DNA of 64,000 nucleotides, from positions 22,270 through 86,269 of the forward strand of contig PYIZ01000009.1 of the NCBI GenBank assembly GCA_003635265.1, in the 5' to 3' direction. The translations under genes and the position numbers were made by a program. This DNA comes from Candidatus Poribacteria bacterium (GTDB lineage: Bacteria; Poribacteria; WGA-4E; PCPOR2b). The notes beneath the pieces were generated by a model that worked only from the letters and a program-made list of their open reading frames with translations, did not search any database and was not told the DNA's origin. Position 1 is the stretch's first letter. Every line of letters starts with the position of its first letter. Of this stretch, positions 405-59,525 are shown piece after piece.

Positions 405-500
405 TCCCGCCTACAGACTTACGCATTTCAGCGCAGTTGGTGCGGAGCAAGTCCGGGGGGAACCTTCCGCAAGCGGAATCCCGATGAATCGGGACGTGAC
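405..500. repeat. Divergent or rearranged member of the composite repeat / REP family between rpsP and the KH gene
   Basis: Contains CCCGCCTACAGACTTACGCA, the palindrome CCCGATGAATCGGGAC (478-493), and GATGCCCCGCTATAG, all modules seen in copies B-D. Confidence 0.5.
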
Positions 501-569
501 CAGGGATGCCCCGCTATAGTTGGCTGCGTAAGTGCTATTGATGTAAAACCGCGTATTTAGGGGGATCCC

Positions 570-821
570 ATGCTCAAGGATTTGATTGAATATCTTGCAA
601 AATCCCTCGTTGATTATCCAGATCAGGTCAGTGTCAACGAAGTCGAGGGTAACACTGTGACTATTCTTGAACTGAGCGTTGTCCCTGAAGATCTAGGAAA
701 AGTCATTGGGAAACAGGGGCGCACAGCCAAGGCAATGCGATCTCTGCTACTTGCTGCGGGAGTCAAAGCACGTAAAAAGGCAATACTTGAAATTGTCGAA
801 CACCGTCAAGCGGTAGAGTAA
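570..821 (+). CDS. KH-domain RNA-binding protein (YlqC/UPF0109 family)
   Basis: 83 aa. The VIGKQGRTAKAMRSLL motif (GxxG KH loop) is present. It sits in the conserved position after rpsP. Confidence 0.75.
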   Translation: MLKDLIEYLAKSLVDYPDQVSVNEVEGNTVTILELSVVPEDLGKVIGKQGRTAKAMRSLLLAAGVKARKKAILEIVEHRQAVE

Positions 822-853
822 GCATTTGCAATCCTACCGACTCACTATGACGA

Positions 854-1276
854 ATGAGTGGGAGAGATATGGCTGTTATTGTCAAAAGACCTGTTATTCT
901 GAAAAATATTGTGACCCCCGCTTTTAAGGAGCAACTCACGAAGGAGTTAGAGCACACGATTCGCCAGATTGAAACATGGCTGCAGCAAGAGGAATTCCAA
1001 AGTCGACGTTTGATTGCGGAAGCTCAAAAGCGAGATCCACGTCGTGTTAATCAGTTGCGCGAAGAGGTTCACCAAGAGCGCGAAAAACAGGAGCAGGTGA
1101 AAAGCAATCTCAGCCAGAAGTTAGCGCAAGTTAAGGAACTTGAGATTGACACCCTTTTTACCAGCGGAACGTATGATGCGCCTGTCAAAATTGAGGTAGG
1201 GGATGACATCCGCGCCAAACTGTCTCAGGCAGAGATTATCGTCAAAGATGGAGTTGTCGTCCAAGTGATTGAATGA
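854..1276 (+). CDS. YlqD-like coiled-coil protein (hypothetical) occupying the slot where rimM usually sits
   Basis: 140 aa, charged coiled-coil middle, no PRC-barrel motifs of RimM. Its 3' end overlaps the trmD start by 4 bp. Confidence 0.45.
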
Positions 1277-2016
1277 GAATTGACATCATTACCATTTTTC
1301 CAGAGGTCATCCTGCCGGTGTTGCAAGCTGGTATCTTGAGGCGTGCACAAGCCAGAGACATATTGGCAGTCAACGTTCACAACCTGCGCGATTTTACGAC
1401 AGACCGCCATCAAACAGTTGATGACTATCCTTACGGGGGCGGTGCAGGCATGATTTTGAAACCGGAGCCGCTTTTCGCCGCGATCCGGACGCTACAACCG
1501 GAGTCAACTGCGCGTATTATTTACCTGACCCCACAAGGAACTCCCTTTAACCAAGCATGTGCTGAAGCTCTGTCTCTTGAATCGCACCTCATCTTGATCT
1601 GCGGACGCTACAAAGGTATTGACGAGCGAGTACGTATTAAACTGGTTACAGATGAGATTTCGATAGGCGATTATGTCCTCAGCGGTGGAGAAATTCCGGC
1701 GCTGGTCTTGGTTGATGCGATTGGTCGAGTTTTGCCGCGTGCGTTGGGAAATTACGAATCAGCACAGGAGGATTCATTTAGTCAGGGCTTGCTAGATTGT
1801 CCTCATTACACGCGACCCGTTGAGTATGAGGGGATGAAGGTCCCTGATATCCTGTTGAGTGGGCACCATGAAAACATTACGCATTGGCAACGCGAACAGT
1901 CTCTCAAGCGGACTGCTGAACGCCGTCCCGATTTACTCAAGAACGTTGAACTTTCGACTGAAGACGTTGCCTACTTGGGTTCCCTGAAGGAATCAGATGT
2001 AACGAGTCATGCATAA
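1273..2016 (+). CDS. trmD: tRNA (guanine37-N1)-methyltransferase
   Basis: [11 protein letters not shown]... N-terminus and the [13 protein letters not shown] and [11 protein letters not shown] motifs are typical of TrmD. Length 247 aa. Confidence 0.9.
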
Positions 2017-2186
2017 GATGTAAGAAGAAACTTTTGTCTCGATTTTTCCCGGGATCTGTCCTACTGGAAGTAAAGGCAGAATAGAGGGATAGGTTGTTTT
2101 TCCGCGCTATTTCTCTCCTGTTTCTCGCGGGCATAACGGCAAATTTTGAGGTTGTAAGCAGCTAAGATGAAAGGAGGAACCAAACG

Positions 2187-2546: not shown

Positions 2547-3156
2547 AGAGAACTATCCAGCGGAGGTACAACAGTTTGAACAAACCCTACGACAGCAGGG
2601 CTATCAGCGTATCGCAGGAATTGACGAGGCTGGGCGAGGAGCATTAGCCGGTCCTGTTGTCGCAGCAGCTGTTATTCTTCCTATCAACTGTCAGATTTCA
2701 GGTATGACAGATTCAAAACAGCTGACCCCCAAACGGCGGGTTGAATTGTTCGACGAGATCCATCACACAGCCGTAGGGGTTGGTGTGGGTCGTGTTGGGA
2801 ATGAGGAGATTGATCGGATTAATATCCTTCAAGCTACAATGGCTGCAATGGCTCAGGCTATTGCAGAGATCACGCCTGCCCCGGATTATGCGCTTATAGA
2901 TGGCACACATCTGCCTGAAATCTCTCTACCTGCCGAAGCGATTCCAAAGGGAGATACTCTTATCCAGTCTATTGCTGCTGCTTCAATTATCGCGAAAGTC
3001 ACGCGAGATCACCTGATGATTGAACTCGATGAAACCTATCCGGGCTACAGTTTCCAAGTCCACAAAGGATACGGCACACTTGTGCATCGTCAAGCAATTG
3101 CCCAACTCGGTCCCTGCCCTATCCACCGACGTAGTTTTAAGCTTCAGTCAAAATGA
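2380..3156 (+). CDS. rnhB: Ribonuclease HII (start codon uncertain)
   Basis: [21 protein letters not shown] and [10 protein letters not shown] motifs. The annotated ORF begins at 2311 inside rplS. The catalytic domain begins about 2590. There is no canonical start between 2547 and 2590, so the start may overlap rplS (ATG 2380) or use an atypical codon. Confidence 0.8.
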
Positions 3157-3533
3157 GCGACTCCAGAATTAAGGTAGGAAAGATCGGTGAAACCCTTGCC
3201 ATTGAGCATTTCAAAGCGCAAGGATATGAAATTCGCGCACGGAACTACCGCACGCGTTCAGGTGAGATTGATCTCATTGTTCAGCGTGGAAAACGGGTTG
3301 TGTTTGTTGAAGTCAAGACGCGTCGGAGCAGCAAATTTGGCCTACCACAAGCGGCTGTTACTCCTGCCAAACAGAGGCAAGTATCCAAGATTGCGCTGAG
3401 TTATCTGCAAAGGCACAACCTCCTAGATGTTCCCTGCCAATTCGACGTTGTTGCAATTGTCCTGTCTTGGAAATTTGAGCTAATCAAACTTCAGCACATT
3501 GAAAATGCGTTTGAATTCTACGCCAACGGTTGA
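3153..3533 (+). CDS. YraN-family (UPF0102) endonuclease-like protein
   Basis: 126 aa. GETLAIEHFKAQGYEI...GEIDLIV...VVFVEVKTRR is the YraN pattern. Conserved neighbour of rnhB. Confidence 0.8.
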   Translation: MSDSRIKVGKIGETLAIEHFKAQGYEIRARNYRTRSGEIDLIVQRGKRVVFVEVKTRRSSKFGLPQAAVTPAKQRQVSKIALSYLQRHNLLDVPCQFDVVAIVLSWKFELIKLQHIENAFEFYANG

Positions 3534-3604
3534 TAAACATCCACGCAATTGCATCAATTTTTACTGGATTCTGTATCGTATTTTATAATAGCAGTTTGGG
3601 AAAG

Positions 3605-4501
3605 TTACTTCGCATCTAAACTGGATAGCATATTCCGAAGATAAACAGCATCCTCTTTTGCCCACTGCTCCAGATTCGGCGGTGTGGTCTCGGCATACCC
3701 CACCTGACGAATAATTGATTCATCGAAGCGGTACTCCGTATGCACCGTTAGGGGTCCATCAAAACCGCTTTCGCACAGAAGTCCCAAATAACGCCTCCAA
3801 TCAACACCCCCATCACCCAGCTTTACAAAACAGGGAACATAAGGGGGAGTATGATCGGGCTGCGAGAGGTAGAGGGAATCTTTGATTCCAATAACGGACA
3901 GATAATCTCCGATCATCGCTAGCCCCATCGCCCAATCCTCGCCATCAAGCAGGAGATGTCCGGGATCGGGGTAGGCGCCGATGTGCTGTGGATCGAAACC
4001 TCTAATAAGATGCATCAGTCCTGCACAGTTTGATCCGATACAGGCACCGCTGTGGATCTGGTAACAGGTTTGTATCCCATATTTCTCACTAAATGCACTA
4101 AACCCCTCAAGCTCCCGGCGTGCAGCATCAATCACTTGCCAATAATCGTCTCCTTCGTTAAACCGCCAGAATCCGATTTTGAGGCGCGGGATGCCTGCTT
4201 CTGCACACGCTGCATATAATCCTTCTACCTCCGGCGCATTCGGATTTGTTATATCTGTCGCCGCTGTTGCCAACGGACAGGTGAGGTTCTGTCTCGCCCA
4301 AACTTTCATCGCTTTGGGGAGTGCCTCGACAACGTTATCGACGTGGATAGGGTGTCCGGGACGGACGCAGATATCTACCCCATCGTAGCCGAGTTCGATA
4401 GCTTTCTCGCCAAGTTGTTCGACAGATAGCTCCGTAAAGAACTTAGAATTTAGTACGATTTCCATGTAGAGTTCCTCCAATAGTTTATGGTATAAGGCCA
4501 T
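3605..4501 (-). CDS. Sugar phosphate isomerase/epimerase (xylose-isomerase-like TIM barrel)
   Basis: 298 aa. ELGYDGVD...FWRFNEGDDYW...HTEY are TIM-barrel AP-endonuclease-2 / xylose-isomerase-like motifs. Confidence 0.7.
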   Translation of the reverse strand: MALYHKLLEELYMEIVLNSKFFTELSVEQLGEKAIELGYDGVDICVRPGHPIHVDNVVEALPKAMKVWARQNLTCPLATAATDITNPNAPEVEGLYAACAEAGIPRLKIGFWRFNEGDDYWQVIDAARRELEGFSAFSEKYGIQTCYQIHSGACIGSNCAGLMHLIRGFDPQHIGAYPDPGHLLLDGEDWAMGLAMIGDYLSVIGIKDSLYLSQPDHTPPYVPCFVKLGDGGVDWRRYLGLLCESGFDGPLTVHTEYRFDESIIRQVGYAETTPPNLEQWAKEDAVYLRNMLSSLDAK

Positions 4502-6076
4502 CTAGTCGCGATTGAAATGCTTGCCGGGCAGATACTTGATCTCCAACTCGACATCGCGGACGTAACACTGAGGGGTTACATCAGGATCGCGCAGCAGCAG
4601 TGTGACTTCGAAGACGTTCTCACCTGTTTGGGGCCAGTGGCTAGGGTCAAGACGGTAAACGAACCAATAGCCTGAACCGGTGCGGTAACGTGGTGCACGC
4701 ATACGGTACATCTCGTTGATTTTTCGCAGTAGATGTGCCGGTAACTCTACGCCGTTGAGTTGAAAACGCAGTTGGTCGTTTTCGGTGGTGTTCATGATTC
4801 GGACCCGTAAGAGAACCTCGTGCACCCTGCCCACGTGCGCCCACCGGGGAAGGTCGTCGCTAATCGTTAGCGCTAACTGAACAGGTACGTGCACAGCCAA
4901 GTCAGCGGGCAGTTGCGATGTGAGTTCCGGACTCGAAAAGCGACCGGCTACTGTGGGGATATGATAGAATTTATCCTTGGGTGCCATAATGTCGGGATGG
5001 GGCAACTCTCGGAGTTTTTCATAGAATGAGGCATCATAGGGCCAGTTCGTGAACCACTGACTGATATAAAGTCCGTCAATGCCTTGTGCCCAGTAGTTGC
5101 AAGCCGCAGCACGAATCATTTCAATCGACGCTTCGCCCAAGCGGTCAGAGTCTACATTGCTGTCGATAGCGGCGTGAATGCGGCACTTTGTCCCTTTGGC
5201 AGACTCTACCAAGGAACAGAGATCGTCAAGGAGGGGTGCTTCATAGGTCAAGGAAGTACCGTTTGGATCCCGCAACTCAGGTCTTGCGAGTGCTTGAGCG
5301 ATGAGAACATCCACGATGCCTTGCCGCATCCATTCCTGTGGATCCAAACCACGGGACAGACAAGTCTCGACATTCGACGGGATGCTAATTGCCAATTCTC
5401 GCTCGGAGCCACTTCGTTTTACCGCCTCATAGACCTGTTCAACCCACTCGGTCATGATTTGACGCCCCTTGTCCACTTCATCTGGGTGGAAGTAGTGGGG
5501 CCAGAAATTGAACTGGAGCTCGAATCCATCGACCTCATAATTGGTGAGCACCTCTGAGATGAGTGCGAATCGTTCATCACGGACGGCTTGGTGCATGAAA
5601 TCAGCGCAGTGGATACCCGGGAAACTAGGGTCTAAGTTACCCTTTGCGCCGATCTCTAGATGCTTGTTATCCAATCGAAAATCCGAGCTGCGAATATCGT
5701 ATCCGCCTCCCCCTCGCTCGCCGCTCTCCAGCTGCATCAGCAGTGTAGGGTAGAACAGTAACCCCACATCATGGGCGCGATCACAGATTATCCGCAAGGG
5801 ATCGTTGCCCTCTTGGATCAGATGCAGCGCATTTTGGTATGTCCGACGAAAGATAAGATGGTTCCATTTTTGGACATTATGCCCCCACAGCTCGCCAACC
5901 TCTGTATCGTGTAGGACGGTCCGCCCATCTCCCAAGCAAAACATCAGTGCCTCGACAGGAGTACCAGCTAGCTCATCAACTGCTGCCTCGCACTCCTCCT
6001 TCTGCATCGCGGGTTCGTACATGTAGAGAAGCGGATGGCGTCCATCGTGGTAGAACATGATACGTGGCTTTCGCAT
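4502..6076 (-). CDS. Hypothetical 524-aa cytoplasmic protein, possibly a glycoside-hydrolase-like TIM barrel; co-transcribed with the isomerase (0-bp gap)
   Basis: Long ORF with uniform coding texture, no signal peptide, no recognisable catalytic motif. Functional call is inference from context. Confidence 0.35.
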   Translation of the reverse strand: MRKPRIMFYHDGRHPLLYMYEPAMQKEECEAAVDELAGTPVEALMFCLGDGRTVLHDTEVGELWGHNVQKWNHLIFRRTYQNALHLIQEGNDPLRIICDRAHDVGLLFYPTLLMQLESGERGGGGYDIRSSDFRLDNKHLEIGAKGNLDPSFPGIHCADFMHQAVRDERFALISEVLTNYEVDGFELQFNFWPHYFHPDEVDKGRQIMTEWVEQVYEAVKRSGSERELAISIPSNVETCLSRGLDPQEWMRQGIVDVLIAQALARPELRDPNGTSLTYEAPLLDDLCSLVESAKGTKCRIHAAIDSNVDSDRLGEASIEMIRAAACNYWAQGIDGLYISQWFTNWPYDASFYEKLRELPHPDIMAPKDKFYHIPTVAGRFSSPELTSQLPADLAVHVPVQLALTISDDLPRWAHVGRVHEVLLRVRIMNTTENDQLRFQLNGVELPAHLLRKINEMYRMRAPRYRTGSGYWFVYRLDPSHWPQTGENVFEVTLLLRDPDVTPQCYVRDVELEIKYLPGKHFNRD

Positions 6077-6408
6077 GGCAGATCCCTTCGTTTGAGATGA
6101 CCGATTTTGGGGTCAGGATTGGTAAACTCCTATTTTGCCATGACGGGCTTCCGAAAGTCAAGGGGATAGCTGTATTGAATTAGGGTTATTTAATGAGATG
6201 TCGGGATTCGGATATCCCTCTTACAGGATGCCCCTATGTATCGGTTGCAAGTGGAAGTGGTGAATTATTCTCTTTTTTGGCTCTCTTTTTTGAGTAATTC
6301 TTGCTATAATGTATATTACAGCGATCGAAGGCAAGGTAGCATCAAATCTAAAAAAATACAACGCTATTGATGAGACTATCAAACTGTGTAGGCGAAAGGA
6401 TCGTTATT

Positions 6409-7815
6409 ATGATCGATCAGCAGTATCTTCTCAATGACGAAGAGGTGCAGAACTTCATCAAAAATGGGTATATCACAGTCCACCCCGATTTACCCGACCT
6501 CCACGAAGAAATCTACCGGGAGACTGCAGCGATATTTGAGAAAGAGGGGGATCCGCGGAATCATATCCTTCAAAAAGTTCCTGCGCTGCGTCAGGTGTTT
6601 GCCCATCCGACTGTCCGCGGTGTCTTGACCAGTCTTTTGGGACCAAATTACATGATGCACCCGCATCGCCATGCACACATGAAGCAGCCGGGACAGAAAG
6701 GTGGTGCTTGGCATCAGGATGGCAGATCGAAACATTTCACAACGAAAGACCACGGGTGGCTTTTTGAATGGAGACGACACCATCGGTTTCGGTCTGTTTG
6801 GGCGTGGTATTATCCGCAGGAGGTCACCGAAGATATGGGGCCGACAGCGGTGATACCGGGGGTACAGTACTACGATTTGGAAAGTATGCGGCACTACAAC
6901 AATGCCTACGCTGATCCGAAGATTGGCGCGCTGCTTTGTGGAAAGGCGGGCACGATAACGATCGGTCATTACCATCAGTGGCACAGCAGTTGGGGGACAA
7001 ATCACAGCAACAAGAATCGTTACATGATCAAGTTTCTCCTCACCCGCACAGAAGAGCCGCAACAGCCCTCTTGGAACGCCAACGGCATGATCTCAACAGA
7101 TACTAACGACGCACCGACACCCGGTCAAGGAGCGGTCTGGAACCATGTGTGGGGTTGGCTAAAGGGAGATAATGCGGCGATGGAAAAAAATAGGGGTAGA
7201 AATGGAAACCACGTTTCTGAGTTGATTGCCGCATTGCGTGATACCTCCGCGCCGGCTCGTCTGAATGCTGTCTATGCCCTCGGAGCAATTGGTGAGTCTG
7301 CTGTGGATCCACTGATAGAGGTGCTGCGTCAGACTGCTGAACCTGTTGAGACTACGGAGGAGCCTATCTTAACCCATGCGGCGTATGCCTTGAGTGCGAT
7401 TGGGGCAGCCGCTGTTCCTGCATTAACTTCCGTACTGAACGACGATGCGGCGTGGTGGATGCGTGCGACTGCAGCGGATACCTTGGGAGATATCGGTGAA
7501 CCCACTGCAGAAGCGGTTCCCACGTTGATTCAGGCTCTGGATGATTCGTCTGAGTGGGTCCGTCGTAATGCCGTGAATGCGTTAGGAACTATTGGCGAAG
7601 GGACGGAGGCATTGAAAACGGCTTTGAAGGACGACCATCCGTTGGTTCGCTGCAATGCGGTGAATGCACTAGCAAGAGCGTGCAAAGGAGTTGATACAGA
7701 AATTGATGCTGCTAGCCGTGCACTATCAACGGTGATGTATGACGACGAATACGCTATCATCCGTGAATACGCCATTGCTGCGCTAGAAGAGATAGATATA
7801 GACGCTAGCAATTAA
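6409..7815 (+). CDS. Phytanoyl-CoA dioxygenase (PhyH)-like Fe(II)/2OG oxygenase domain fused to five C-terminal PBS-lyase HEAT-like repeats
   Basis: N-terminal domain has the WHQDG (HxD) motif. The C-terminus has repeated ...NAVxALGxIG units (LNAVYALGAIG, THAAYALSAIG, RRNAVNALGTIG, VRCNAVNALA). The ORF opens at 6367, but the RBS favours ATG 6409 (MIDQQY). Confidence 0.7.
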   Translation: MIDQQYLLNDEEVQNFIKNGYITVHPDLPDLHEEIYRETAAIFEKEGDPRNHILQKVPALRQVFAHPTVRGVLTSLLGPNYMMHPHRHAHMKQPGQKGGAWHQDGRSKHFTTKDHGWLFEWRRHHRFRSVWAWYYPQEVTEDMGPTAVIPGVQYYDLESMRHYNNAYADPKIGALLCGKAGTITIGHYHQWHSSWGTNHSNKNRYMIKFLLTRTEEPQQPSWNANGMISTDTNDAPTPGQGAVWNHVWGWLKGDNAAMEKNRGRNGNHVSELIAALRDTSAPARLNAVYALGAIGESAVDPLIEVLRQTAEPVETTEEPILTHAAYALSAIGAAAVPALTSVLNDDAAWWMRATAADTLGDIGEPTAEAVPTLIQALDDSSEWVRRNAVNALGTIGEGTEALKTALKDDHPLVRCNAVNALARACKGVDTEIDAASRALSTVMYDDEYAIIREYAIAALEEIDIDASN

Positions 7816-8396: not shown

Positions 8397-8411
8397 AATC
8401 TCCTCCTAATG

Positions 8412-10046: not shown

Positions 10047-10111
10047 AGAATCTCCTTATTTTTTTAAATGAGTGGCTCGTGTAAAAATAGAGTGCAACTA
10101 CGGTGAAGGGG

Positions 10112-11005
10112 TTGAGAGCCTGTTTTAAAAGTCATTTGATACGGTTTTGCATCAAGTAAATGGAAGCAATGTACACCATCGCTTCAGCGGTTTCGGCAGA
10201 GCGTTCATAGTCCAAAGTCAATCGGCGAAACCGACCGAACCAAGAAAAGGTGCGTTCCACAATCCAACGTAATGGAACGACCACAAATCCCGATTGCCTA
10301 AGAGATGGGGCAATGTCCAATTGACACTGATGCGCCATATATAACCAGTCGCCTAATTTTCCACGATAGCCAGCATCGGCGCAGACTAACTGAATCGTTA
10401 TGTGCCACCTAAAGATTTCTGTTAATAACTCTATTGCGACTTGGTTATCACTGATATTTGCATCAGTGACCTTCACCCGCAATGGAATGCCAATTGTATC
10501 GGTGACTATGTGGCGTTTACGACCTTTGACTTTCTTATGTGCATCAAAGCCGCGAGTATCTGCCAGTTCGGTCGTTTTAACGGATTGGCTGTCAATGATA
10601 GCTACTGTCGGTGAAGGTGCTTTGCCAATATCACAACGGATTTGCTCGTGAAGTGCTTGATGAATCATAAGCCATGTGCCATCAGTTTTCCATTTTCTGA
10701 AATGGAAGTAGACCGTTTGCCATGGCGGCATCTGATGCGGGAGCATTCGCCATTGACACCCTGATTTGACTATATAAAAGATAGCGTTGATAATTGCACG
10801 CATCTTCCACTTGAGAGGTCTACCTACCGGCGAAGGTTTTGGCAGATAAGGTAACAGTCGGCACCATTGGGCATCCGTCAAATCCGTGGGATAGTTTGTT
10901 TGGGTCATGTTTATGCCTTTCATTGGAGTTGGATTCACTGCTCCAATGATTGAACGTAAACATTAACTCTTGAGTAGAAGTTTTCTTTTTAAAACAGGTT
11001 CTGAG
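10112..11005 (-). mobile_element. IS5-family insertion sequence (about 0.9 kb, single transposase ORF), apparently intact
   Basis: Imperfect terminal inverted repeats GAGAGCCTGTTTTAAAAG (10114-10131) and CTTTTTAAAACAGGTTCTGAG (10986-11005). They flank a 268-aa DDE transposase. Confidence 0.8.
10132..10938 (-). CDS. IS5/IS1031-group DDE transposase
   Basis: LTDAQWCRLLPYLP...GRPLKW...RAIINAIFYIVKSGCQWRMLP is the hallmark N-terminus of IS5-family transposases. DDE region ...ADAGY.... Confidence 0.85.
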   Translation of the reverse strand: MNPTPMKGINMTQTNYPTDLTDAQWCRLLPYLPKPSPVGRPLKWKMRAIINAIFYIVKSGCQWRMLPHQMPPWQTVYFHFRKWKTDGTWLMIHQALHEQIRCDIGKAPSPTVAIIDSQSVKTTELADTRGFDAHKKVKGRKRHIVTDTIGIPLRVKVTDANISDNQVAIELLTEIFRWHITIQLVCADAGYRGKLGDWLYMAHQCQLDIAPSLRQSGFVVVPLRWIVERTFSWFGRFRRLTLDYERSAETAEAMVYIASIYLMQNRIK

Positions 11006-11135
11006 GGCGGGGCAAGATGCCCCGCCTACGATGGGTTTGGAGTCTGAACATGTCCCTCGACGCCCGATGAATCCCCGACTTATCGGGACGGGCGGGCAAC
11101 TACAAACTGAACTGCGTAACTCCTATACTATTAGG
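11004..11135. repeat. Composite intergenic repeat, copy B (3' portion), abutting the IS right end and carrying an inserted REP unit
   Basis: GCGGGGCAAGATGCCCCGCCTACGATGG...CTGAACATGTCCCTCGAC...CGATGAATCCCCGACTTATCGGGACGGGCGGGCAA...CTACAAACTGAACTGCGTAACTCCTAT. A weaker 5' remnant (GCAACTACGGTGAAGGGG) is at 10085-10111 on the other side of the IS. Confidence 0.7.
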
Positions 11136-13351: not shown

Positions 13352-14371
13352 TTAGATCGCCTTTAGAACCTGTGCAACCACCTGATTGGGATCAATTTCT
13401 GTCATACACAGATGTGGTTGATCCTTCCGCATACAACTCCGCTTGTAGCAGGGACGACATTCCACCGGTTTCTCAATAACTTTGTGGTTCTCGCCATACG
13501 GACCGTGACGCATTGGGCTTGTCGGTCCAAAAAGGGCAATCGTCGGTGTCCCCACAGCTGCTGCGATGTGCATCGGACCGCTGTCACAGGTTAGGTAAAG
13601 GTCGCAACTTTCGATCAAGGCACCGAGTTGCATCAGTGTTGTTTTCCCGATCAGGTTAATCGTTTCCACCTTTGCGATCTGCGCTAATGCTTCACCCAAC
13701 GGACTTTCGGCGGTTGAGCCTGTTAGTAGTATCCGCGCCTCGAAACGTTTTTGTATCTGTGTTATCACTGCCGCGAAGTTCTCCAAAGACCAACGTTTTG
13801 TACGCCATGTCGTGCCGAGGTTGACCCCGATTAGGTATTCTTTAGGGGAGATGCCGTGCATCGTAAGTATCTGACGCACTGTATGACGGTCTGCGTCTGT
13901 ATGCCAAAACTCCAGTTTTGCGTTTGGTTCGTGGATATCGATTAACTCTAGCACGCGGAGGTAACGGTGGATTTCGTGGAGATCCGTCCGATCCGCGCAA
14001 GTCTGCGTCAGCAACATGCCTCGTCCACTTACATTCGAGCCGATCCGTTCAGGAATACCCGCTAGAAATGGGATCAATGCGTTACGAAAGGAGGTTGGAT
14101 GAAGGACAACCGCAAGATCGAAGTCTGACCGTCGAATCTCGCTCACTGATTTCCAGAACAATGGCAAACGACTGAGTCCCCTTGCCTTGCTGTCGACTAT
14201 GACTTCGTCGATATAGGGGTGGGTCGCCATCAAGTCCGCCACGAGTGGTCGAATGAGTAGTGCCAAGTGGGATTGGGGATAAACGGTTTTCAGTGCTCTT
14301 AATGCAGGTGTGAGCAGTATCATGTCCCCGATCCAGCCGCCGGTTTGGGTGACAAGAATTCGATTTCTCAA
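13352..14371 (-). CDS. Glycosyltransferase family 9 (LPS heptosyltransferase-like)
   Basis: 339 aa. The ILVTQTGGWIGDMILLTPALRALK N-terminus and CDSGPMHIAAAVGTPTIALFG C-terminal motif are typical of RfaF/WaaC/WaaQ. Confidence 0.8.
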   Translation of the reverse strand: MRNRILVTQTGGWIGDMILLTPALRALKTVYPQSHLALLIRPLVADLMATHPYIDEVIVDSKARGLSRLPLFWKSVSEIRRSDFDLAVVLHPTSFRNALIPFLAGIPERIGSNVSGRGMLLTQTCADRTDLHEIHRYLRVLELIDIHEPNAKLEFWHTDADRHTVRQILTMHGISPKEYLIGVNLGTTWRTKRWSLENFAAVITQIQKRFEARILLTGSTAESPLGEALAQIAKVETINLIGKTTLMQLGALIESCDLYLTCDSGPMHIAAAVGTPTIALFGPTSPMRHGPYGENHKVIEKPVECRPCYKRSCMRKDQPHLCMTEIDPNQVVAQVLKAI

Positions 14372-25017: not shown

Positions 25018-25355
25018 GAAAAGATACCGGGAGCCAAAAGAGGTGTGATAGCGGAGAAGTAGTCAGAGTCTTTGGATTAAGAGTGACGTTGATGTTTTTC
25101 GAGTCTAACTTGCTTTGTTATCTCTTTGTTTACAGGATACTTTTCTTTCTTCATGTTTTCAGTTTTTGCTATGTTGCAGGGAATTTCCGATAGCAGAGCA
25201 CATCGGTCTACCTATACATTGAAGAAATAATAGATACACGGCATAAGATATGATATAATAACGCGCTGCAAAATTCAGCAATAACTTTGAGCGGAAATAA
25301 CATTTGTGCCAATATCATATCACTGGATGGGGAGGATTCACGATTGTCAGTTGCT

Positions 25356-26207
25356 TTGGATCCCGATGAAATCGGGGCGAAAATTATTGATGGGAAAGAG
25401 CTAGCTAGATCTGTTCGGCGCAAGATTCGGCGCCAAGTGAAGAAACTCAAATTTACCCCCGGACTTGCGGTGGTCCAAGTTGGAGATGATCCCGCTTCGA
25501 CCGTCTATGTCAGCAACAAGGAGAAGGATTGTCAGTATGTCGGCTTTCATTCGGAGGTACATCGAATGCCGGCGGAAACGCCGCAAGCAGCGGTCATAGA
25601 ACAAATTCACACGCTGAACAGTCGTGAGGATATACACGGAATTATTGCTCAAATGCCGGTGCCTGATTCTATTGATGGGGATACTATTATCAACGCGATC
25701 ATGCCTGAAAAGGACGCCGACGGTCTGACGCTTGTGAACTTAGGTAACCTCCTGATTAACCGTGAACAGACTGTTCCGTGCACGCCAGCAGGAATTATCC
25801 GTCTCATTGAATCGACTGGCGTAGGGATTGAAGGGAGCCGCGTCGTTTGTGTGGGTCGCAGCAGTCTGGTTGGCAAACCTGTTGGGTTGATGCTGCTCAA
25901 CCGCAATGCGACGGTCACCTACTGCCACACGAGGACTCGTGAACTTTTCTCGGAAACGCAACAAGCGGACATTCTGATTGCAGCAGTTGGCAGACCTCGG
26001 TTAATTACGGCAGGCATGGTAAAACCGGGGGCGGTCGTGATTGATGTGGGAATTACTATTACTGAAGATGGCTTTGTTGGTGATGTTGATTATGAGAGTG
26101 TCGAGGAGGTCGCCGGTTTTATCACACCTGTTCCCGGCGGTGTTGGACCGATGACACGTGCAATGTTGTTAGAAAACACATTAGAATTAGCTTTGGCTCG
26201 AAAATAG
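25356..26207 (+). CDS. folD: Bifunctional methylenetetrahydrofolate dehydrogenase / methenyl-THF cyclohydrolase
   Basis: KIIDGKELA...GLAVVQVGDDPASTVYV...PGGVGPMT are FolD signatures. The ORF opens at 25287, but homology begins at about 25380. A TTG at 25356 is the plausible start. Confidence 0.85.
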   Translation: MDPDEIGAKIIDGKELARSVRRKIRRQVKKLKFTPGLAVVQVGDDPASTVYVSNKEKDCQYVGFHSEVHRMPAETPQAAVIEQIHTLNSREDIHGIIAQMPVPDSIDGDTIINAIMPEKDADGLTLVNLGNLLINREQTVPCTPAGIIRLIESTGVGIEGSRVVCVGRSSLVGKPVGLMLLNRNATVTYCHTRTRELFSETQQADILIAAVGRPRLITAGMVKPGAVVIDVGITITEDGFVGDVDYESVEEVAGFITPVPGGVGPMTRAMLLENTLELALARK

Positions 26208-33186: not shown

Positions 33187-34497
33187 GTGGCACGGTTTGA
33201 ATTGCCCCGAGTCCAGTTCTTAACGAAAGGGTCTATGTCTATATCAACAATTCCTCGTTCGGTGCAGCAGCGCATAACGGCAACATTGTTCATTTCGCAG
33301 AGTTTATTCAGTGCATCAATGATTTTGTCGTTTACACTTTTGCCGATTATTTCTGCACACCTAGGTGGGACAGATCGTGCTGCAGGGTTACCACCCACAA
33401 TGATGATGTTGGGACGGGCCGTCGCTGCCTACCCTGTGGGCTGGCTTATGGACCACATAGGGCGGCGGTTGGGTCTAGCACTGGGGTATTTATTTACTGC
33501 AGCCGGATCAGTGCTTTGCGTGCTATCAATAAGCATGTGGGAGTCGTTACCATGGCTCTGTGCCGGTGTGTTGTTAATGGGTATGGGACGCGGGGTAAGT
33601 GAACAAGCGCGTTTTATTGCGGCTGAAGTCTATCACCCGATCAAACGCGCGGGAGTGATTGGTCTTATTGTTTTCGCAGGGACTATAGGTGCCGTGGGTG
33701 GTCCGCTGCTGGTAGCTCCTTCGACTTGGCTGGCGACCTCCTTTGGCTTGCATGCCCACGCTGGTCCTTATATGGTATCGGTAGTACTAGCTACCCTTGC
33801 GCTAATGCTGACCGCTCTCTTATTATACCCAGATCCCATGAAAATAGGAAGGACGTTATCGGGAGCCCTGAGCGGGGTAGACGAGAAGAACACTGGGCGC
33901 AAGTTGTGGCGAATTTTTATTGACAGAACAGTGAGACTTGGTGTGGCAGCGATGATAATTGGTCAGTTCGTTATGACGCTAATTATGGTGATTACACCGC
34001 TGCATATGAATCATCATGCTCATGGAGAACAGGCGATTTCGTGGGTGATAATGGCGCATACTTTGGGGATGTACGGACTTTCGAGTTTGACGAGCCGTCT
34101 GACAGACCGTTTAGGTCCGGTCCTAATAATAGTCGTCGGTGCATTGATACTGGGTGCTTCCGCCGTGCTAACACCGATTTCCAATTTAGACGCTTTACAA
34201 CTGACAAGACTCGAACAAGTTTCTATGCTTGCTTTTAGTCTATTTCTTCTGGGGCTGGGTTGGAATTTCTGTTTTATCGCGGGATCTGCACTGTTTTTCA
34301 GCGGTCTATTGCCTGTCGAACGCGGTCGGGCACAGGGTGCTAGTGAGATGATGGTGGCTTTGGCGGCGGGAGCAGGTAGTTTGGGAACAGGTGCAGTGTT
34401 TGCGGAAGCAGGAATTGTAGCGGTGAGCGCAATGGGACTTGCCTTTTCACTGGTGCTAATTGTAGCATCGGTTTGGCGGTTGTTCACAATGAGATGA
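33187..34497 (+). CDS. MFS transporter (12 TM)
   Basis: 436 aa with alternating hydrophobic helices and the MFS loop motif GRxxDRxGRR-like (MDHIGRRLG). Confidence 0.85.
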   Translation: MARFELPRVQFLTKGSMSISTIPRSVQQRITATLFISQSLFSASMILSFTLLPIISAHLGGTDRAAGLPPTMMMLGRAVAAYPVGWLMDHIGRRLGLALGYLFTAAGSVLCVLSISMWESLPWLCAGVLLMGMGRGVSEQARFIAAEVYHPIKRAGVIGLIVFAGTIGAVGGPLLVAPSTWLATSFGLHAHAGPYMVSVVLATLALMLTALLLYPDPMKIGRTLSGALSGVDEKNTGRKLWRIFIDRTVRLGVAAMIIGQFVMTLIMVITPLHMNHHAHGEQAISWVIMAHTLGMYGLSSLTSRLTDRLGPVLIIVVGALILGASAVLTPISNLDALQLTRLEQVSMLAFSLFLLGLGWNFCFIAGSALFFSGLLPVERGRAQGASEMMVALAAGAGSLGTGAVFAEAGIVAVSAMGLAFSLVLIVASVWRLFTMR

Positions 34498-34499
34498 TA

Positions 34500-34795
34500 A
34501 GAGCGTGAAACGTGATGCCCCGATAAATCCCCGATAAATCGGGACAGGCGGGACAGGCTGTAAAATCCCGTTCCGAGGATCTCCCGATTTCATCGAGGAT
34601 TCTCGGCAAAGCCGGAACCGATCCATCGGGACGTGACAACATTGGTTTATTGAGGCAGCGGCAAGGAACAACGATCCTCCGGTCTGTGACCGAGAGTCCG
34701 ATCCCGATTTTTCCCGATTCTCGGGATCCTCGATGAAATCGGGACAAGGACTCCGATGAATCGGAGGAGTTGTTCCCTACGGTTTTTTAACATGA
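34500..34795. repeat. Cluster of REP-like palindromes (CCCGAT-NN-ATCGGGAC units) arranged as a MITE-like 200-bp imperfect palindrome
   Basis: Tandem CCCGATAAAT CCCCGATAAATCGGGAC at 34515-34550. Perfect 19-bp inverted repeat TCCCGATTTCATCGAGGAT (34582-34600) / ATCCTCGATGAAATCGGGA (34726-34744). Outer GGAACAAC / GTTGTTCC arms. Confidence 0.7.
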
Positions 34796-35118: not shown

Positions 35119-35152
35119 TTCTCAGATGAGGAAGCGATAAGTAGATTTTAGT

Positions 35153-35310
35153 TAGAACTTACGCAGCTGAACGGTGAGATGTCGTAATTCAATGTTTCAT
35201 CGCCAATGCGGGGCAAGATGCCCCGCCTACGATGGTTGTGGATTCTGAACATACCCTTCGACACCCAATGAATTGCGCTACTACAAACTCAAGTGCGTAA
35301 GTCCTATTAG
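35153..35310. repeat. Composite intergenic repeat, copy C (full length)
   Basis: AGAACTTACGCAGCTGAACGGTGAG...CATCGCCAATGCGGGGCAAGATGCCCCGCCTACGATGG...CTGAACAT...CTACAAACTCAAGTGCGTAAGTCCTAT. Contains the hairpin GCGGGGCAAGATGCCCCGC. Confidence 0.8.
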
Positions 35311-35392
35311 TGATATTTATGTCTTTCGACAAAGAAATTGTGGATACCTATAGTGGTTCTGGAGATCGAGGCTGCCACAGGAATCCTTGGAA

Positions 35393-38294: not shown

Positions 38295-38321
38295 CACTTT
38301 TCGGTTAGGTTCATATAAAAA

Positions 38322-38385
38322 GAAAGTGCAAAACGATAAGACCGTGAAACGTGAAAACTATTGGTTCATTAGTTCATTTACAGGA
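38322..38385 (+). repeat. Conserved 60-bp leader motif, copy 1 (AAAGAAAGTGCAAAACGA...CGTGAAACGTGAAAAC...TTGGTTCATTAGTT)
   Basis: Near-identical to 41467-41525. Related cores at 57135-57180, 62171-62230 and 34503-34517. Immediately upstream of the cupin gene RBS. Confidence 0.7.
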
Positions 38386-40359: not shown

Positions 40360-41454
40360 ATGCGATCCAGCGACTCTAAAATTTCCACCACATTTCAGAA
40401 TCCCAACACCCGTTTCGGCGTGATCGGTATTATCGGAGCAGCCATCATCCTCCTAGCGATGGTACTTGGGCTACAGGTTATTGAAGAGACTGGGGTGATT
40501 GATCCCTTCCTCCAACAGTGGAAACAAGCTGTCGAATCCAAGCAACCGAGATTATATCAACAGTTATGGGATTCGACCGCACGAACCAAAAACCGGAATC
40601 AGTATGAACGCGCATTGAAACTCTTCAGCAGAGAAAAGGTTGAAGCGGATATAACTGGACATCTTGCTCAGAAAGATCTCGGGAACACGAATCGACAACA
40701 GATTGAACGCATCCCTGTCACGCTCTACCAAGATGGTAAGGTTTTAGTGGTAATCTATCGGGACATAACTGTTGAAAAGAGGGGACTTTTACAACGCTGG
40801 AAACTGATAGACGATAAAATTCACGATGAGTTAGGATATCCCGAAACCACCGAGGAGTATATCGTTCAAGATCAAGAGATGGTCGCTCAATCTGCCAATC
40901 CAACGCCCGAAAGTCGTTCGTTGCAGCCCGTTGATGCTCCAATGCCTTCCAATAACGTTGTTACATCGCCTCAAGCCGCTGCGCCCAAAAGTTCCTCGCC
41001 GATTGTCGGTGAGGCACCGCTTGATACCCAGCTTAAATTGAGCCAAGTTTTGGGGGAATGGCAGCAGGCTTGGCAGGGAAAGAATCTTACAATCTATATG
41101 TCGAAGTATGCCGAAGACGCAGTGATTACAAGGGTCGCTATTAACAGGGGACGAGAATATCCGACTCGGTTGGATAAAAAACAGTTGCGCGAGAAAATGA
41201 AAGCTCTTAATGAAAGGTATAGCAAAATTAAAGTGAATATTTTTCAGTTGCAAATCCACGGAGATAGTGCGGTAGCTGATGTCAATTTCTTACAAGAATT
41301 TGTTGGTACTCGCGCCTCTGGAAGTCAACCTGTTTACTCAGATTTCGGCAAGAAAGAATTGGTTTTTATGGTGGATCCTGCCGATGGCGTCTGGAAGATC
41401 TATGCTGAGAGTTGGAGACATTATAAAAACGTCCCCAAGTATCCGAAACTTTAA
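40360..41454 (+). CDS. Membrane-anchored paralog, with a C-terminal NTF2/SnoaL-like domain
   Basis: One N-terminal TM helix (FGVIGIIGAAIILLAMVLGL) and a Pro/Ser-rich linker. C-terminal domain LGEWQQAWQGKNLTIYMSKYAED...WKIYAESWRHYKNVPKYP matches the WKIFRESWRIYEAVPRYG of the upstream protein. Confidence 0.5.
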   Translation: MRSSDSKISTTFQNPNTRFGVIGIIGAAIILLAMVLGLQVIEETGVIDPFLQQWKQAVESKQPRLYQQLWDSTARTKNRNQYERALKLFSREKVEADITGHLAQKDLGNTNRQQIERIPVTLYQDGKVLVVIYRDITVEKRGLLQRWKLIDDKIHDELGYPETTEEYIVQDQEMVAQSANPTPESRSLQPVDAPMPSNNVVTSPQAAAPKSSSPIVGEAPLDTQLKLSQVLGEWQQAWQGKNLTIYMSKYAEDAVITRVAINRGREYPTRLDKKQLREKMKALNERYSKIKVNIFQLQIHGDSAVADVNFLQEFVGTRASGSQPVYSDFGKKELVFMVDPADGVWKIYAESWRHYKNVPKYPKL

Positions 41455-41466
41455 GGTTCATGTCAA

Positions 41467-41525
41467 AAGAAAGTGTAAAATGCAAAGCGCGTGAAACGTG
41501 AAAAGCATTTGTTCATTAGTTTGTT
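41467..41525 (+). repeat. Conserved 60-bp leader motif, copy 2
   Basis: AAAGAAAGTGTAAAATGCAAAGCGCGTGAAACGTGAAAAGCATTTGTTCATTAGTT. Directly after the stop of the paralog gene and upstream of the lipoprotein gene. Confidence 0.7.
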
Positions 41526-41734
41526 GGCAGTAAGAAGCAATGATCGTTGTTCACTACCGTTTCTGTTGTATAATTTTTTAACTTGAGCCAACTTAAATCA
41601 TCATTTTGGATTAAATTACTATCACCGATTGACTGAAACCGCGCATTCATCTATGCGTTTTTGTTATTGGATAAATCTTGGCAGCCCATTTTGGCTGAAT
41701 ACACCCAAAATTTCAACCTACAAGGACAAGAACG

Positions 41735-57134: not shown

Positions 57135-57180
57135 ACCGAAGGTGAAACGTAAAATGTGAAAATCGTTTGTTCATCAATTT
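57135..57180 (+). repeat. Leader motif family, copy 3 (GGTGAAACGTAAAATGTGAAAATCGTTTGTTCATCAATT)
   Basis: Shares the GTGAAAC-GT(G/A)AAAA core and the TTTGTTCAT box with the copies at 38322 and 41467. Lies in the unusual 340-bp murF-mraY gap. Confidence 0.6.
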
Positions 57181-57410
57181 ATGAATGAGCCAATGAATTG
57201 ACGAACTCTCCTAGTAATCAGGATTTTACTCCGCTCAACTTGAACGATATGGAAACAAGATCCCCACCAAATAGCACCAAAGGCTAATAGTTTGGGTAGG
57301 ATCAGGCTTGAAATTGTCGGTTAAGCGGAAGGAAGCAGTTGCTGTCTTTCCTTCCTCATTTCTCATTGCTTCCAATTTCCAAAGGATAAACCTTAAATCA
57401 AAAGTTACCC

Positions 57411-58514
57411 ATGCTCTACTATCTATTTTTTGAACAACTGACAGAGTTTTTTTCGCCGTTGAATGTTTTTCGTTATATTAGCTTTCGGTCCATCTATGCA
57501 ACAATAACCGCGCTACTTATAGCCCTCATCTTAGGCCCTTTCGTTATTCAACATCTGAGACGATTGAAAATCGGTCAGCATGTCCGCGATGATGGTCCCG
57601 AAACCCATTTCAGCAAAGAGGGTACGCCGACAATGGGTGGCGTACTGATTATCACGTCCGTGCTGATTTCAATTTTGTTGTGGGCGCGATTGGATCAGCC
57701 TTATATTTTTATCCTCACCTTTAGTATTCTGTGGTTTGGCGGACTCGGCTTTCTGGACGATTACCGGAAGATTACCAAACAACAATCACTTGGATTGAAG
57801 GGTTGGCATAAGCTCTTTTTACAAGCAGTCGGTGCACTTGCCATTGCCTACTTCCTCTACCAATGGGGACCCGTTCCCAAAGACAGCTTGACCGAGAGAA
57901 CATCAATTATCATTCCTTTCTTTAAGCAACTTCGCCCAGACCTCGGCGTATTCTTTATTCCATTTGCAGCGTTCGTCATTGTCAGTGCGTCCAACGCTGT
58001 TAATCTTACGGACGGGCTTGATGGTCTAGCAATCGGCTGTACGCTGTTTGTCGCAGCCACATTTGGTATATTAGGCTACCTTACAAGCCACCAACAGTTA
58101 GCAAATTACCTCGACATCGCCCACATTCCAGTTGGTGGAGAGGCTGCGACTATCTTCTGTGCTGCATTAATTGGAGCCGGTGTGGGTTTTCTATGGTATA
58201 ATTGTCACCCAGCACAGGTTTTCATGGGAGATACAGGTTCGTTAGCCCTTGGTGCAGTACTTGGAACAATTTCTATCTTAATCAAGGAAGAGATTCTACT
58301 TGTGATTGTTGGTGGAATTTTTGTGGCAGAAGTGCTCTCCGTTATCATCCAAGTTGTATCTTATAAAACACGAAAAAAACGGGTGTTCAGGATGTCACCA
58401 CTACATCACCATTTTGAACAGCTCGGTTGGCCCGAGCCGAAAGTTGTGCTGCGTTTCTGGATTATTGGATTGATTTTGATGCTCGTCGCACTGAGCACCC
58501 TCAAATTGCGATAA
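57411..58514 (+). CDS. mraY: Phospho-N-acetylmuramoyl-pentapeptide transferase
   Basis: 10 TM helices, with the DD (NLTDGLDGLA) and HHH (SPLHHHFE) motifs of MraY. Confidence 0.9.
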   Translation: MLYYLFFEQLTEFFSPLNVFRYISFRSIYATITALLIALILGPFVIQHLRRLKIGQHVRDDGPETHFSKEGTPTMGGVLIITSVLISILLWARLDQPYIFILTFSILWFGGLGFLDDYRKITKQQSLGLKGWHKLFLQAVGALAIAYFLYQWGPVPKDSLTERTSIIIPFFKQLRPDLGVFFIPFAAFVIVSASNAVNLTDGLDGLAIGCTLFVAATFGILGYLTSHQQLANYLDIAHIPVGGEAATIFCAALIGAGVGFLWYNCHPAQVFMGDTGSLALGAVLGTISILIKEEILLVIVGGIFVAEVLSVIIQVVSYKTRKKRVFRMSPLHHHFEQLGWPEPKVVLRFWIIGLILMLVALSTLKLR

Positions 58515-58589
58515 TGGGAAAAGGGGCAGGCAGAAAACGGCGAAGGTTCAATAATTAAAAATAGTTCAAATCTGTGTAAGGGGAAGACC

Positions 58590-59336
58590 ATGCGACTACA
58601 GAATAAGATTGCCCTCGTCACTGGTGGGGCAACCGGCATCGGTGCTGCTACAGCTATGATGTATGCAAGAGAGGGAGCAAAAGTCATCATTGCTGATCTG
58701 AATGAGGCAGATGGTAAGGCAACTGCACAATCTATTGAAGCAGAAGGCGGCACCGCCCAGTTTATACGGATCGATGTGTCTCAAGAGGCGGAGGTTGCTG
58801 CAATGGTGGAATCCGTCGAGCAGAAGTTTGGGAGGCTTGATGTGTTGGTGACCTGTGCTGGCATCCTGCTGGGTGCAGCGGTACGGATTGATCAATTTGA
58901 CGCAGAAGCGTGGGATGCCGTCATCAGGGTCAACTTGCGGGGGACCTTCCTGTGCACTAAACATGCTGTTCCACTGATGGAAAAGAGCGGCGGTGGGGTC
59001 ATTGTGCTGATAGCGTCGGGAGCAGGGGTGACGGGGCCCAGTGCCTCCGTCGCCTACGGTGCTAGCAAAGGCGGTGTGCGTGGGTTAGGATTTACGTTGA
59101 AGAATCAGGTTGAACCGTTAGGTATCCGCGTGCATGTCGTTTGTCCCGGTAACCTCAATACACCCCTGAAGCTCAGGGCGATCGCCGAAATTGCAGAGCG
59201 GGGTGGAGAATCACCGGAGGCGGCTGTTGCTGCCGCACAATCCACCCTGTTTAAGCCGGAGGAGGTCGCCAAGGTGCTGACAGATCTCGCTTCTGACGCG
59301 GGGGTAAATGCCGACGAACTGGTATTTACAAAGTGA
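58590..59336 (+). CDS. SDR-family oxidoreductase
   Basis: TGGATGIG and NAG-equivalent motifs, and a Y..xK triad (YGASK). Confidence 0.85.
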   Translation: MRLQNKIALVTGGATGIGAATAMMYAREGAKVIIADLNEADGKATAQSIEAEGGTAQFIRIDVSQEAEVAAMVESVEQKFGRLDVLVTCAGILLGAAVRIDQFDAEAWDAVIRVNLRGTFLCTKHAVPLMEKSGGGVIVLIASGAGVTGPSASVAYGASKGGVRGLGFTLKNQVEPLGIRVHVVCPGNLNTPLKLRAIAEIAERGGESPEAAVAAAQSTLFKPEEVAKVLTDLASDAGVNADELVFTK

Positions 59337-59364
59337 CCTGAACTGCTGTCTGTTTTCTATTCAT

Positions 59365-59525
59365 TAGAACTTACGCAGTTGAACGATGAGGTGTTGTAGT
59401 TCGATCCTTCATCGCCAATGCGGGGCAGGCTCCCCCGTCGACGATGGGTGTGGTGTCTGAAAATGTCTTTTGACGCGCAATGAATTGCGCGACTACAAAC
59501 TCAAGTGTGTAACTCCTAATTGGCT
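59365..59525. repeat. Composite intergenic repeat, copy D (full length)
   Basis: AGAACTTACGCAGTTGAACGATGAG...CATCGCCAATGCGGGGCAGGCTCCCCCGTCGACGATGG...CTGAAAAT...CTACAAACTCAAGTGTGTAACTCCTAAT. Co-linear with copy C, about 85% identity by eye. Confidence 0.8.

Follow-up and report, generated by a model that had tools for sequence, protein, structure and literature searches.

Nezha of Anabaena/Nostoc, which shares its ends with ISNpu3, and the Correia elements of Neisseria are MITEs (miniature inverted-repeat transposable elements) that are mobilized by insertion sequences (ISs) (PMC3184786). A second kind of short bacterial repeat, comprising the GTAG class of repetitive extragenic palindromes (REPs), bacterial interspersed mosaic elements (BIMEs), and REP doublets forming hairpins (REPINs), consists of GTAG-tagged hairpins of 20 to 40 nt in inverted pairs and mosaics, some of them within longer palindromes or genes (Di Nocera et al. 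2013, PMC3733652; Bertels and Rainey 2011, PMC3116915); in Anabaena variabilis, REP dimers lie within longer palindromes starting with TATAGGA (PMC3733652). Here, we analyzed a 64-kb stretch of a Candidatus Poribacteria contig (PYIZ01000009.1; below, the window; G+C content, 49%), for which an original prediction had described at least four repeat loci built from shuffled modules A to E and had proposed that they could be REP/BIME-like elements, small RNAs, or MITEs. We found that this composite repeat is a MITE with an IS701-family partner and represents a new, ordinary family belonging to a well-known type, and a literature search returned no paper tying Poribacteria to MITEs, REPs, REP-associated tyrosine transposases (RAYTs), or IS200. 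For the structure as a whole, we consider it highly probable that the family combines IS701-type ends with an interior mosaic of REP-like hairpins and that module D represents a separate layer of mini-elements.

All four loci were found at their predicted positions, and they proved to be copies of one MITE family (below, copies A to D). Modules A and E, which had been listed separately, are inverted copies of each other and form the terminal inverted repeats. The consensus ends are imperfect inverted repeats of about 19 bp, reading TAGGACTTACGCAGTTGAA at the 5' end and, when the opposite strand is read, TAGGAGTTACGCAGTTCAG at the 3' end; the end pattern of the family is TAGGA(C/G)TTACGCAGTTG. 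Copies C and D have both ends, copy A has one good and one degenerate end, and copy B has a good 3' end. When one genome per species from 185,579 species was scanned with the 3'-end pattern CTACAAACTNAANTGNGTAANTCC, at least 116 stretches matched; among the matches listed, all were from Candidatus Poribacteria metagenome-assembled genomes (MAGs) and they spanned about 22 assemblies. Copy number per chromosome reached at least 17 on OZ244950.1 and at least 15 on OZ220744.1. This abundance, together with compensatory changes in the module B stem described below, differs from the handful of copies without structural covariation that the original prediction would have read as duplicated regulatory DNA. 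Neither the MITE ends nor module D was present in 134 kb of unrelated metagenome DNA, which served as control DNA and came from a scan for orthologues of a major facilitator superfamily (MFS) gene that lies beside a cluster of module D palindromes in the window; the metagenome relatives of that gene were at most 63% identical to it and too distant for an analysis of empty sites. Look-ups by exact protein sequence gave no match.

A search of the 116 Poribacteria loci and the window for both ends at most 600 bp apart gave 116 paired-end elements of 131 to 565 bp, with modes at 139, 185, and 209 bp. A typical complete copy is non-coding and 130 to 250 bp long, and the copies have no open reading frame (ORF) in common because their interiors differ. 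With element boundaries placed at T-AGGA...TCCT-A and expectations taken from shuffled pairing, we found perfect target duplications of 5 bp at 37 of the 102 complete copies (0.64 expected) and of 6 bp at a further 19 (0.18 expected), 56 in all, while 14 more copies had a duplication with one mismatch. MITE insertion duplicates 5 to 6 bp of an A+T-rich target, the duplicated sites being 68% A+T and without a strict consensus. The family is like Nezha and Correia, which are also non-coding elements of 130 to 250 bp with the ends of an autonomous IS, short target duplications, many copies, stable folds, and both empty and filled sites in relatives. In one sampled sequence, the MITE 3' end is also partly duplicated in tandem, with two copies of GGGAGGGAAGAACGCGCAATGAATTGCGCTACTACAAACTCAACTGCGTAACTCCTAT (L092:7860-7950; L-numbers denote the sampled comparison sequences).

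The autonomous partner was seen in two sequences from Poribacteria MAGs. L076 carries, at 5926-6966, a 1,041-bp IS whose 19-bp ends are perfect (TAGGAGTTACGCAGTTGAG) and which has a 5-bp duplication (ACATT) and a single ORF of 331 amino acids (aa); the ORF product matched the NCBIfam model NF049921 (IS701 family) over model positions 2 to 317 of 318 (E value, 6.6e-119; 397 bits, with a cutoff of 250) and also matched Pfam DDE_5 and DDE_Tnp_1. A second copy with the same ends and a disrupted frame lies at L106:3120-4158. The nearest relatives of this transposase on sequenced plasmids are those of an IS in Gloeocapsa PCC 7428 (63% aa identity) and of ISMesi2 in Allomeiothermus silvanus (54%); ends of the form (C/T)AGGAGTTACGCAGTTG flank both of these ISs too, the end TAGGAGTTACGCAGTTG is common to them and the Poribacteria IS, and the Gloeocapsa copy has a 5-bp duplication. 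MITE-like ends are therefore family-wide for this ISMesi2-like branch of IS701. Compared to IS701 proper, which is 1,400 to 1,550 bp long and makes a 4-bp duplication (PMC6352166), the Poribacteria IS is shorter and its duplication is longer. The MITE and the IS share their ends only, their interiors being unrelated, and the MITEs are most likely moved in trans by the IS701-family DDE transposase through its binding of these shared ends. The size and duplication of the partner resemble those of the ISAba11 subgroup, with its length of about 1.1 kb and 5-bp duplication. Thus, of the identities originally proposed, that of a MITE was borne out by terminal inverted repeats, by target duplications of 5 to 6 bp, by an IS701-family partner that is autonomous and has the same ends, and by sites that are empty in relatives. 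Unlike Nezha and Correia, this MITE has a Poribacteria host, takes its ends from the ISMesi2-like branch, and has an interior that is not IS-derived and is instead a mosaic of REP-like hairpins with nested mini-elements.

In the 185-bp consensus, the order of parts is terminal inverted repeat, GTAG-hairpin, hairpin-CTAC, GTAG-hairpin, hairpin-CTAC, terminal inverted repeat. The hairpins have the form GTAG-N2-3-stem-(G/A)AT-NN-AT(C/T)-stem and alternate in orientation, as in GTAG-TTC-GGCGATTCATCGCC and GCCCGATGAATCGGGC-AA-CTAC. Module B, originally given as a perfect GCGGGG-N6-CCCCGC hairpin, has the structure GCGGGGCA-N3-TGCCCCGC, with an 8-bp stem followed by CTAC; copy D has an imperfect version. 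The opposite-strand reading of module B is GTAG-GCGGGGCA-TCT-TGCCCCGC. Double (compensatory) changes occur in three of the eight stem pairs of module B, and its covariation score of 0.267, based on variants that are few and partly related, compares with 0.128 for shuffles, none of 500 reaching it. Folded as single-stranded DNA, the consensus reached -42.7 kcal/mol (z = -6.4) and copy C reached -29.7 kcal/mol (z = -5.4). Module B and the four hairpins of the consensus are GTAG-tagged palindromes of 20 to 40 nt and fit the published GTAG REP definition (Di Nocera et al. 2013, PMC3733652). Unlike GTAG REPs, BIMEs, and REPINs, these hairpins are enclosed by DDE-type ends that have target duplications. 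In an observation of its own, the orientation of module B agreed with the sign of the local GC skew in a ratio of 16:3, which gene orientation or replication strand may explain.

The segment between GTAGTAG and CTACTAC is present in both orientations among copies (L037, L021, L075, and others compared to the consensus), which suggests inversion between short inverted repeats in MITE interiors. The interiors may diversify by recombination between copies, by inversion between GTAGTAG and CTACTAC, by deletion, and by capture of mini-elements, and the impression of shuffled modules would arise because the interior mosaic is exchanged, inverted, and deleted between copies. A hairpin was also found inverted together with its insert (the beta unit described below) in L050 and L075. 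A second mosaic repeat region in the window, at 30205-30470, has modules in common with more than 20 other Poribacteria loci, among them hairpins with GTAG tags (GTAGGTTGGGTTGAACGG...AACCCAACAA and GGCATACGGAGTATGCCTACTAC) and one hairpin that resembles module B and has 25 nt inserted in its loop.

The four window loci had been described as sharing modules. Copies B, C, and D have a common 66-nt core of 80 to 88% identity; copy A shares only the ends, a split module B, and module D. The word ACTTACGCA occurs five times in the window, where 0.25 is expected, a count that no shuffle reached. Copy A (405-537, plus strand; ends TACAGACTTACGCA ... TGCGTAAGTGCTA) belongs to a short divergent subfamily whose core is the module B hairpin, and it lies in the spacer between rpsP and a KH-domain gene. 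Its left duplication, TAGTG (400-404), overlaps the rpsP stop codon and its right duplication is a degenerate TGATG (539-543), and in L158, TAGTG is found on both flanks of the orthologous copy. The rpsP-KH spacer is empty (28 nt, AATAATG followed by CCAAACCGCG) in 7 of 10 Poribacteria genomes; the element is absent from L159 to L164, L166, and L167, and L158 and L165 have a short form of about 88 nt. The loop of the copy A module B hairpin holds a nested block of about 53 nt (452-505, plus strand) that contains the module D palindrome CCCGATGAATCGGGAC (480-495); the L158 orthologue does not have the block, and its hairpin is intact (GCGGGGCAAGATGCCCCGC).

Copy B has a truncated appearance only because it is interrupted by an IS5-family IS. 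Its degenerate 5' part (10086-10115, plus strand) ends in the left TGA duplication (10113-10115), the 886-bp IS follows (10116-11001, minus strand; right TGA at 11002-11004), and the 3' part (11005-11125, plus strand) comprises the module B hairpin (11007-11029), the core, and the 3' terminal repeat. The IS contains a transposase ORF at 10132-10938 on the minus strand (Pfam DUF4096, 3.9e-28; DDE_Tnp_1, 5.8e-27), and the copy B sequence without this interruption was seen in L152 (GTGCAACTACGGTGAAcGcGTTGAGGGCGGGGCAAGATGCCCCG). We rejected L010 as an orthologue of locus B, since its match at 3016-3913 is another copy of the IS5-family IS, 87% identical to that in the window and with a TTA duplication read from the sequence, and does not reflect synteny.

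Copies C (35153-35306) and D (59365-59518) are complete, 154 bp long, and on the plus strand, and they are co-linear as predicted, with 83% identity over 155 nt. Copy C lies between TTAGT duplications (35148-35152 and 35307-35311) and has a module B hairpin at 35208-35230 and the terminal repeats TAGAACTTACGCAGCTGAA (5') and TAGGACTTACGCACTTGAG (3', on the opposite strand). It is present in L156, from a strain 97 to 99% identical to the window. In L150, a contig with 91% identity, the same site has a single TTAGC and no element. The position of the copies downstream of an oxidoreductase or monooxygenase gene, to which the original prediction had drawn attention, is coincidental, as this 91%-identical relative has the same gene without copy C. 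Copy D, with an imperfect module B at 59420-59442, has orthologues in L151 and L007 and is therefore old; in L007, the 3' end and the last hairpin are kept and the rest of the interior is different. A near-identical strain (L153 and L154; L153:1272-1530 compared to window positions 59300-59700) has a 146-nt deletion between short CTT repeats, through which copy D has lost its interior and 3' end along with 41 nt of flanking sequence.

Module D had been counted as part of the same element and is better read as a separate class of mini-elements of 20 to 27 nt. When 69 MITEs were aligned to the 185-bp consensus, recurrent exact inserts of at least four types appeared, and we counted these in 1.07 Mb of sampled Poribacteria DNA alongside the control DNA. 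We found 47 copies of alpha (CCCCGATTTATCGGGACAGG, 20 nt) in 37 contexts, 29 of beta (CCCCGATAAATCGGGATTAAGAAA, 24 nt) in 21, 31 of gamma (CCCCGATAAATCGGGATTCAAAGCAA, 26 to 27 nt) in 30, and 9 of delta (GTCTCGGACTCTCGGAACGGA, 21 nt) in 8, and none of the four in control DNA. All have the core YCCGAT-N2-3-ATCGGR and a short type-specific tail, and unlike GTAG REPs, they lack a GTAG or CGTC tag. Several positions are occupied by each type, with no target duplication, and some types are found in both orientations. The units lie in loops of pre-existing hairpins both within and outside MITEs, and they nest in each other. The 209-bp length class of the MITE is explained by a beta insert (185 + 24). 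Most alpha units have T(G/A)AATC on one side and CGGG(A/C) on the other, which places them within another hairpin of the same kind. The alpha unit of copy B (CCCCGACTTATCGGGACGGG, 20 nt; 11073-11092, plus strand) follows GATGAAT in the hairpin GCCCGATGAAT/CGGGC; in the alignment of copies B, C, and D, this site is a 20-nt gap in C and D, and it is filled in many paralogous MITEs. The orientation of alpha relative to the local GC skew was 31:16, and beta, gamma, and delta had no clear bias by the same measure, an 8-kb local skew that is confounded by gene orientation.

Within the window, CCGAT-N2-3-ATCGG occurs six times (0.16 expected) and the module D palindrome CCCGATGAATCGGG, allowing up to 2 mismatches, eight times (0.59 expected), and no shuffle reached either count. 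Palindromes in general were not enriched in the window (21, with 16.7 expected), only the GAT-NN-ATC class being so. The additional module D sites of the original prediction, at 25362, 34515-34550, 34620-34640, and 34700-34760, are all real. A small cluster of module-D-like palindromes (AATCCCGATTTATTGGGACAAATCCCG...) also lies at 32925-32985, in the spacer upstream of the MFS transporter gene. Separately, the motif ATGATAAGAGCGTGAAACGTGA is found at or directly after the stop codons of three genes (34494-34515, 38307-38383, and 41454-41530), extends to 77 nt with 81% identity in two of these copies, and has alpha units inserted beside it in the window and in L101.

Comparison with L156 and L150 revealed precise gain and loss of mini-elements on the time scale of strain divergence. 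An alpha unit nested in another alpha unit (41 nt; 34519-34559, plus strand; CCCGATAAAT, then the inner CCCCGATAAATCGGGACAGG, then CGGGACAGGCT) is absent from both L156 (TGC/GTAAAA) and L150, and a single alpha unit occupies a similar site in L101. A nested-hairpin block of about 66 nt (34566-34631, plus strand), which ends in CCGATCCATCGGGA, is likewise absent from both. The most detailed case is a 93-nt insert in a palindrome loop, after GAT (34676-34768, plus strand; GGAACAACGAT.GTTGTTCC), where a three-step series is seen: L150 is empty (loop GATT), L156 has a 28-nt delta unit, and the window has the delta unit with a further 65 nt (34702-34766) nested within it that includes module D copies. 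We also considered the 115-nt block at 34516-34630 as a single small MITE, its ends being CCCGAT and its duplication ACGTGA, and rejected this reading because L156 shows two separate insertions on either side of GTAAAA.

Some further differences between these strains were noted nearby. Three alleles exist at window positions 34510-34636: L150 has ACGTGA once, L156 (reverse complement, about 13460-13480) has ACGTGA-TGCGTAAA-ACGTGA, and the window has two large nests within an L156-type sequence, the difference between L150 and L156 being 14 nt with a 6-nt direct repeat. Compared to L156, the window has a 30-nt in-frame segment in the MFS gene (34186-34215) and, at 35372, is missing 30 nt that make up half of a terminator-like hairpin between convergent genes.

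Two gamma units lie in frame within genes. One (CCCCCGATTTCATCGGGATTGAGAGCA, 27 nt; 32587-32613, plus strand) is in a Zn-dehydrogenase-like (alcohol-dehydrogenase-like) ORF at 31746-32843 on the minus strand, to which it adds ALNPDEIGG. This segment is present in a subclade of orthologues (353 aa, 88 to 95% identity) and absent from all more distant homologues (343 to 345 aa), and it is therefore a derived insertion. The L156 allele has no gamma unit, while the proteins are otherwise identical at 342 of 344 positions (99.4%), which argues for a later precise loss, without flanking direct repeats. The other unit (25351-25377, minus strand; 27 nt, at most 3 substitutions from the gamma pattern) lies at the 5' end of folD, where it forms codons 4 to 12 and encodes ALDPDEIG between MSV and AKIIDGK, in the same frame as the dehydrogenase copy. 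The folD start, TTG at 25344, is consistent with a gene called at 287 aa in L156, and without the gamma unit the protein would read MS(A)KIIDGK, the usual FolD start.

The closest analogue of the mini-elements is found in another phylum: the small dispersed repeats (SDRs) of heterocyst-forming cyanobacteria, reported by Elhai et al. in 2008, are reportedly 21- to 27-nt dispersed repeats with hairpin potential that are nested in one another and within MITEs, with filled and empty sites and no known transposase. In comparison to SDRs, the Poribacteria units show targeting of hairpin loops, in-frame copies in genes, and a precise loss. For the in-frame copies, the nearest parallel is with the palindromic elements of Rickettsia, attributed to Ogata et al. 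in 2000, which are reportedly palindromic repeats of about 100 to 150 bp in frame in protein-coding genes. The gamma unit likewise adds a peptide segment in frame; in contrast to the Rickettsia elements, it is only 27 nt (9 codons) long, and the two genes that carry it, which are unrelated, read it in one and the same frame (AL[ND]PDEIG).

We give an even chance to the proposal that the 20- to 27-nt units transpose by themselves, without target duplication, mostly into hairpin loops and occasionally in frame into genes, and can be precisely excised. The most likely candidate for the mover is an enzyme of the HUH/Y1 type that recognizes single-stranded hairpins (a RAYT or an IS200/IS605-like transposase), a tentative suggestion to which we give somewhat less than an even chance and which fits because the hairpin is conserved, there is no target duplication, loops are preferred, and loss is precise; the remainder is divided between repair or slippage, considered below, and some other mechanism. 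Loops would become single-stranded when a hairpin extrudes and could in this way be preferred targets.

Several points weigh against our interpretation. The interior of the MITE is unrelated to that of the IS, so that the MITE is not a simple deletion derivative of it; no copy of the IS701-family transposase is present in the window, and the two copies in 1 Mb of sampled Poribacteria DNA are not from the window's strain; mobilization in trans is deduced from the shared ends. Copy A has 7 extra nucleotides (TCCCGCC) between its duplication and the 5' repeat, 32 of the 102 complete copies, copy D included, have no recognizable target duplication, and the sampled loci were picked for holding a MITE end, which biases densities. 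If the whole composite were instead a REP/BIME system spread by a RAYT, with the inverted ends incidental, this would account for internal hairpins that are GTAG/CTAC tagged, alternate in orientation, and match the GTAG REP definition, for the 17 identical copies of the GTAG-tagged module B in different contexts, and for the resemblance to the REP dimers within longer palindromes in Anabaena variabilis (PMC3733652). However, duplications of 5 to 6 bp and DDE-type IS ends are foreign to RAYT/REP mobility, 159 of 211 perfect hairpins of the GTAG class lie in end-bounded MITEs (in a sample biased to MITE-containing loci), and in the unbiased 64-kb window there are 9 GTAG-hairpins, with 3.5 expected, mostly within MITEs. 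No RAYT-like ORF was found by tblastn with Escherichia coli RayT (best E value, 0.81) or by HUH/Y motif scans of 985 kb to 1.07 Mb, a weak test, as sampling was thin (about 1 Mb over some 25 genomes) and a single-copy gene would probably escape it. We regard a RAYT-driven composite as very improbable, and what stands of the original REP/BIME proposal is the alternating GTAG-tagged hairpins inside the MITE. Even less credible, to the point of being nearly negligible, is that the loci are structured small RNAs or cis-regulatory RNAs (terminators or stabilizers) duplicated along with their target genes. Strong folds, compensatory changes in the module B stem, and the location of copies in intergenic spacers, some between convergent genes, are what such RNAs would predict, yet nothing matched Rfam at gathering thresholds when the whole window was scanned. 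The copies also bear the ends, target duplications, and empty sites of a transposon, they lie beside genes that are unrelated, their orthologues retain the ends and exchange the interior, and a near-identical strain carries a partial deletion of one copy.

For the mini-elements, the same weighing has to take into account that no transposase or other enzyme is assigned to them and that nested palindromes could in principle form without transposition. They would then not be mobile at all and would derive from breaks or replication errors provoked by hairpins and repaired by template switching, or from slippage. It is true that hairpin loops hold most inserts, frequently at an identical position (following GAT or GATGAAT) and with no target duplication, and since each new insert makes a new hairpin, self-nesting would be explained without any enzyme specificity. 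Against this, the units are identical over 20 to 27 nt including non-palindromic tails (ACAGG, ATTAAGAAA, and ATTCAAAGCAA), they recur in 8 to 37 unrelated contexts across about 22 assemblies and in both orientations, and the unit in the dehydrogenase-like gene is in a non-hairpin context with exact junctions and no flanking direct repeats. We find repair or slippage an unlikely source, and a MITE with IS701-type ends and a separate mini-element layer is the interpretation that we carry forward.

Once recognized, the MITE explains a large part of the intergenic repeat content of Poribacteria genomes. The identity of such repeats matters for the assembly and binning of uncultivated sponge symbionts, and MITE copies are usable as strain-level markers. 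How repeats of 20 to 30 nt spread has been a long-standing question since REPs and the cyanobacterial SDRs. If the mini-elements do transpose, they would be among the smallest mobile DNAs known, their driver may be a single-strand, hairpin-specific enzyme of the HUH/Y1 type or a new mechanism, and they would provide a second independent system besides the SDRs, one whose mechanism is approachable via strain-level polymorphism. Strains that are 91 to 99% identical already differ by several gains and by one precise loss. Complete long-read Poribacteria chromosomes offer a route to the target rule, any strand bias, and the responsible enzyme. The occurrence of the same peptide in two unrelated enzymes points to a route by which such elements may alter proteins.

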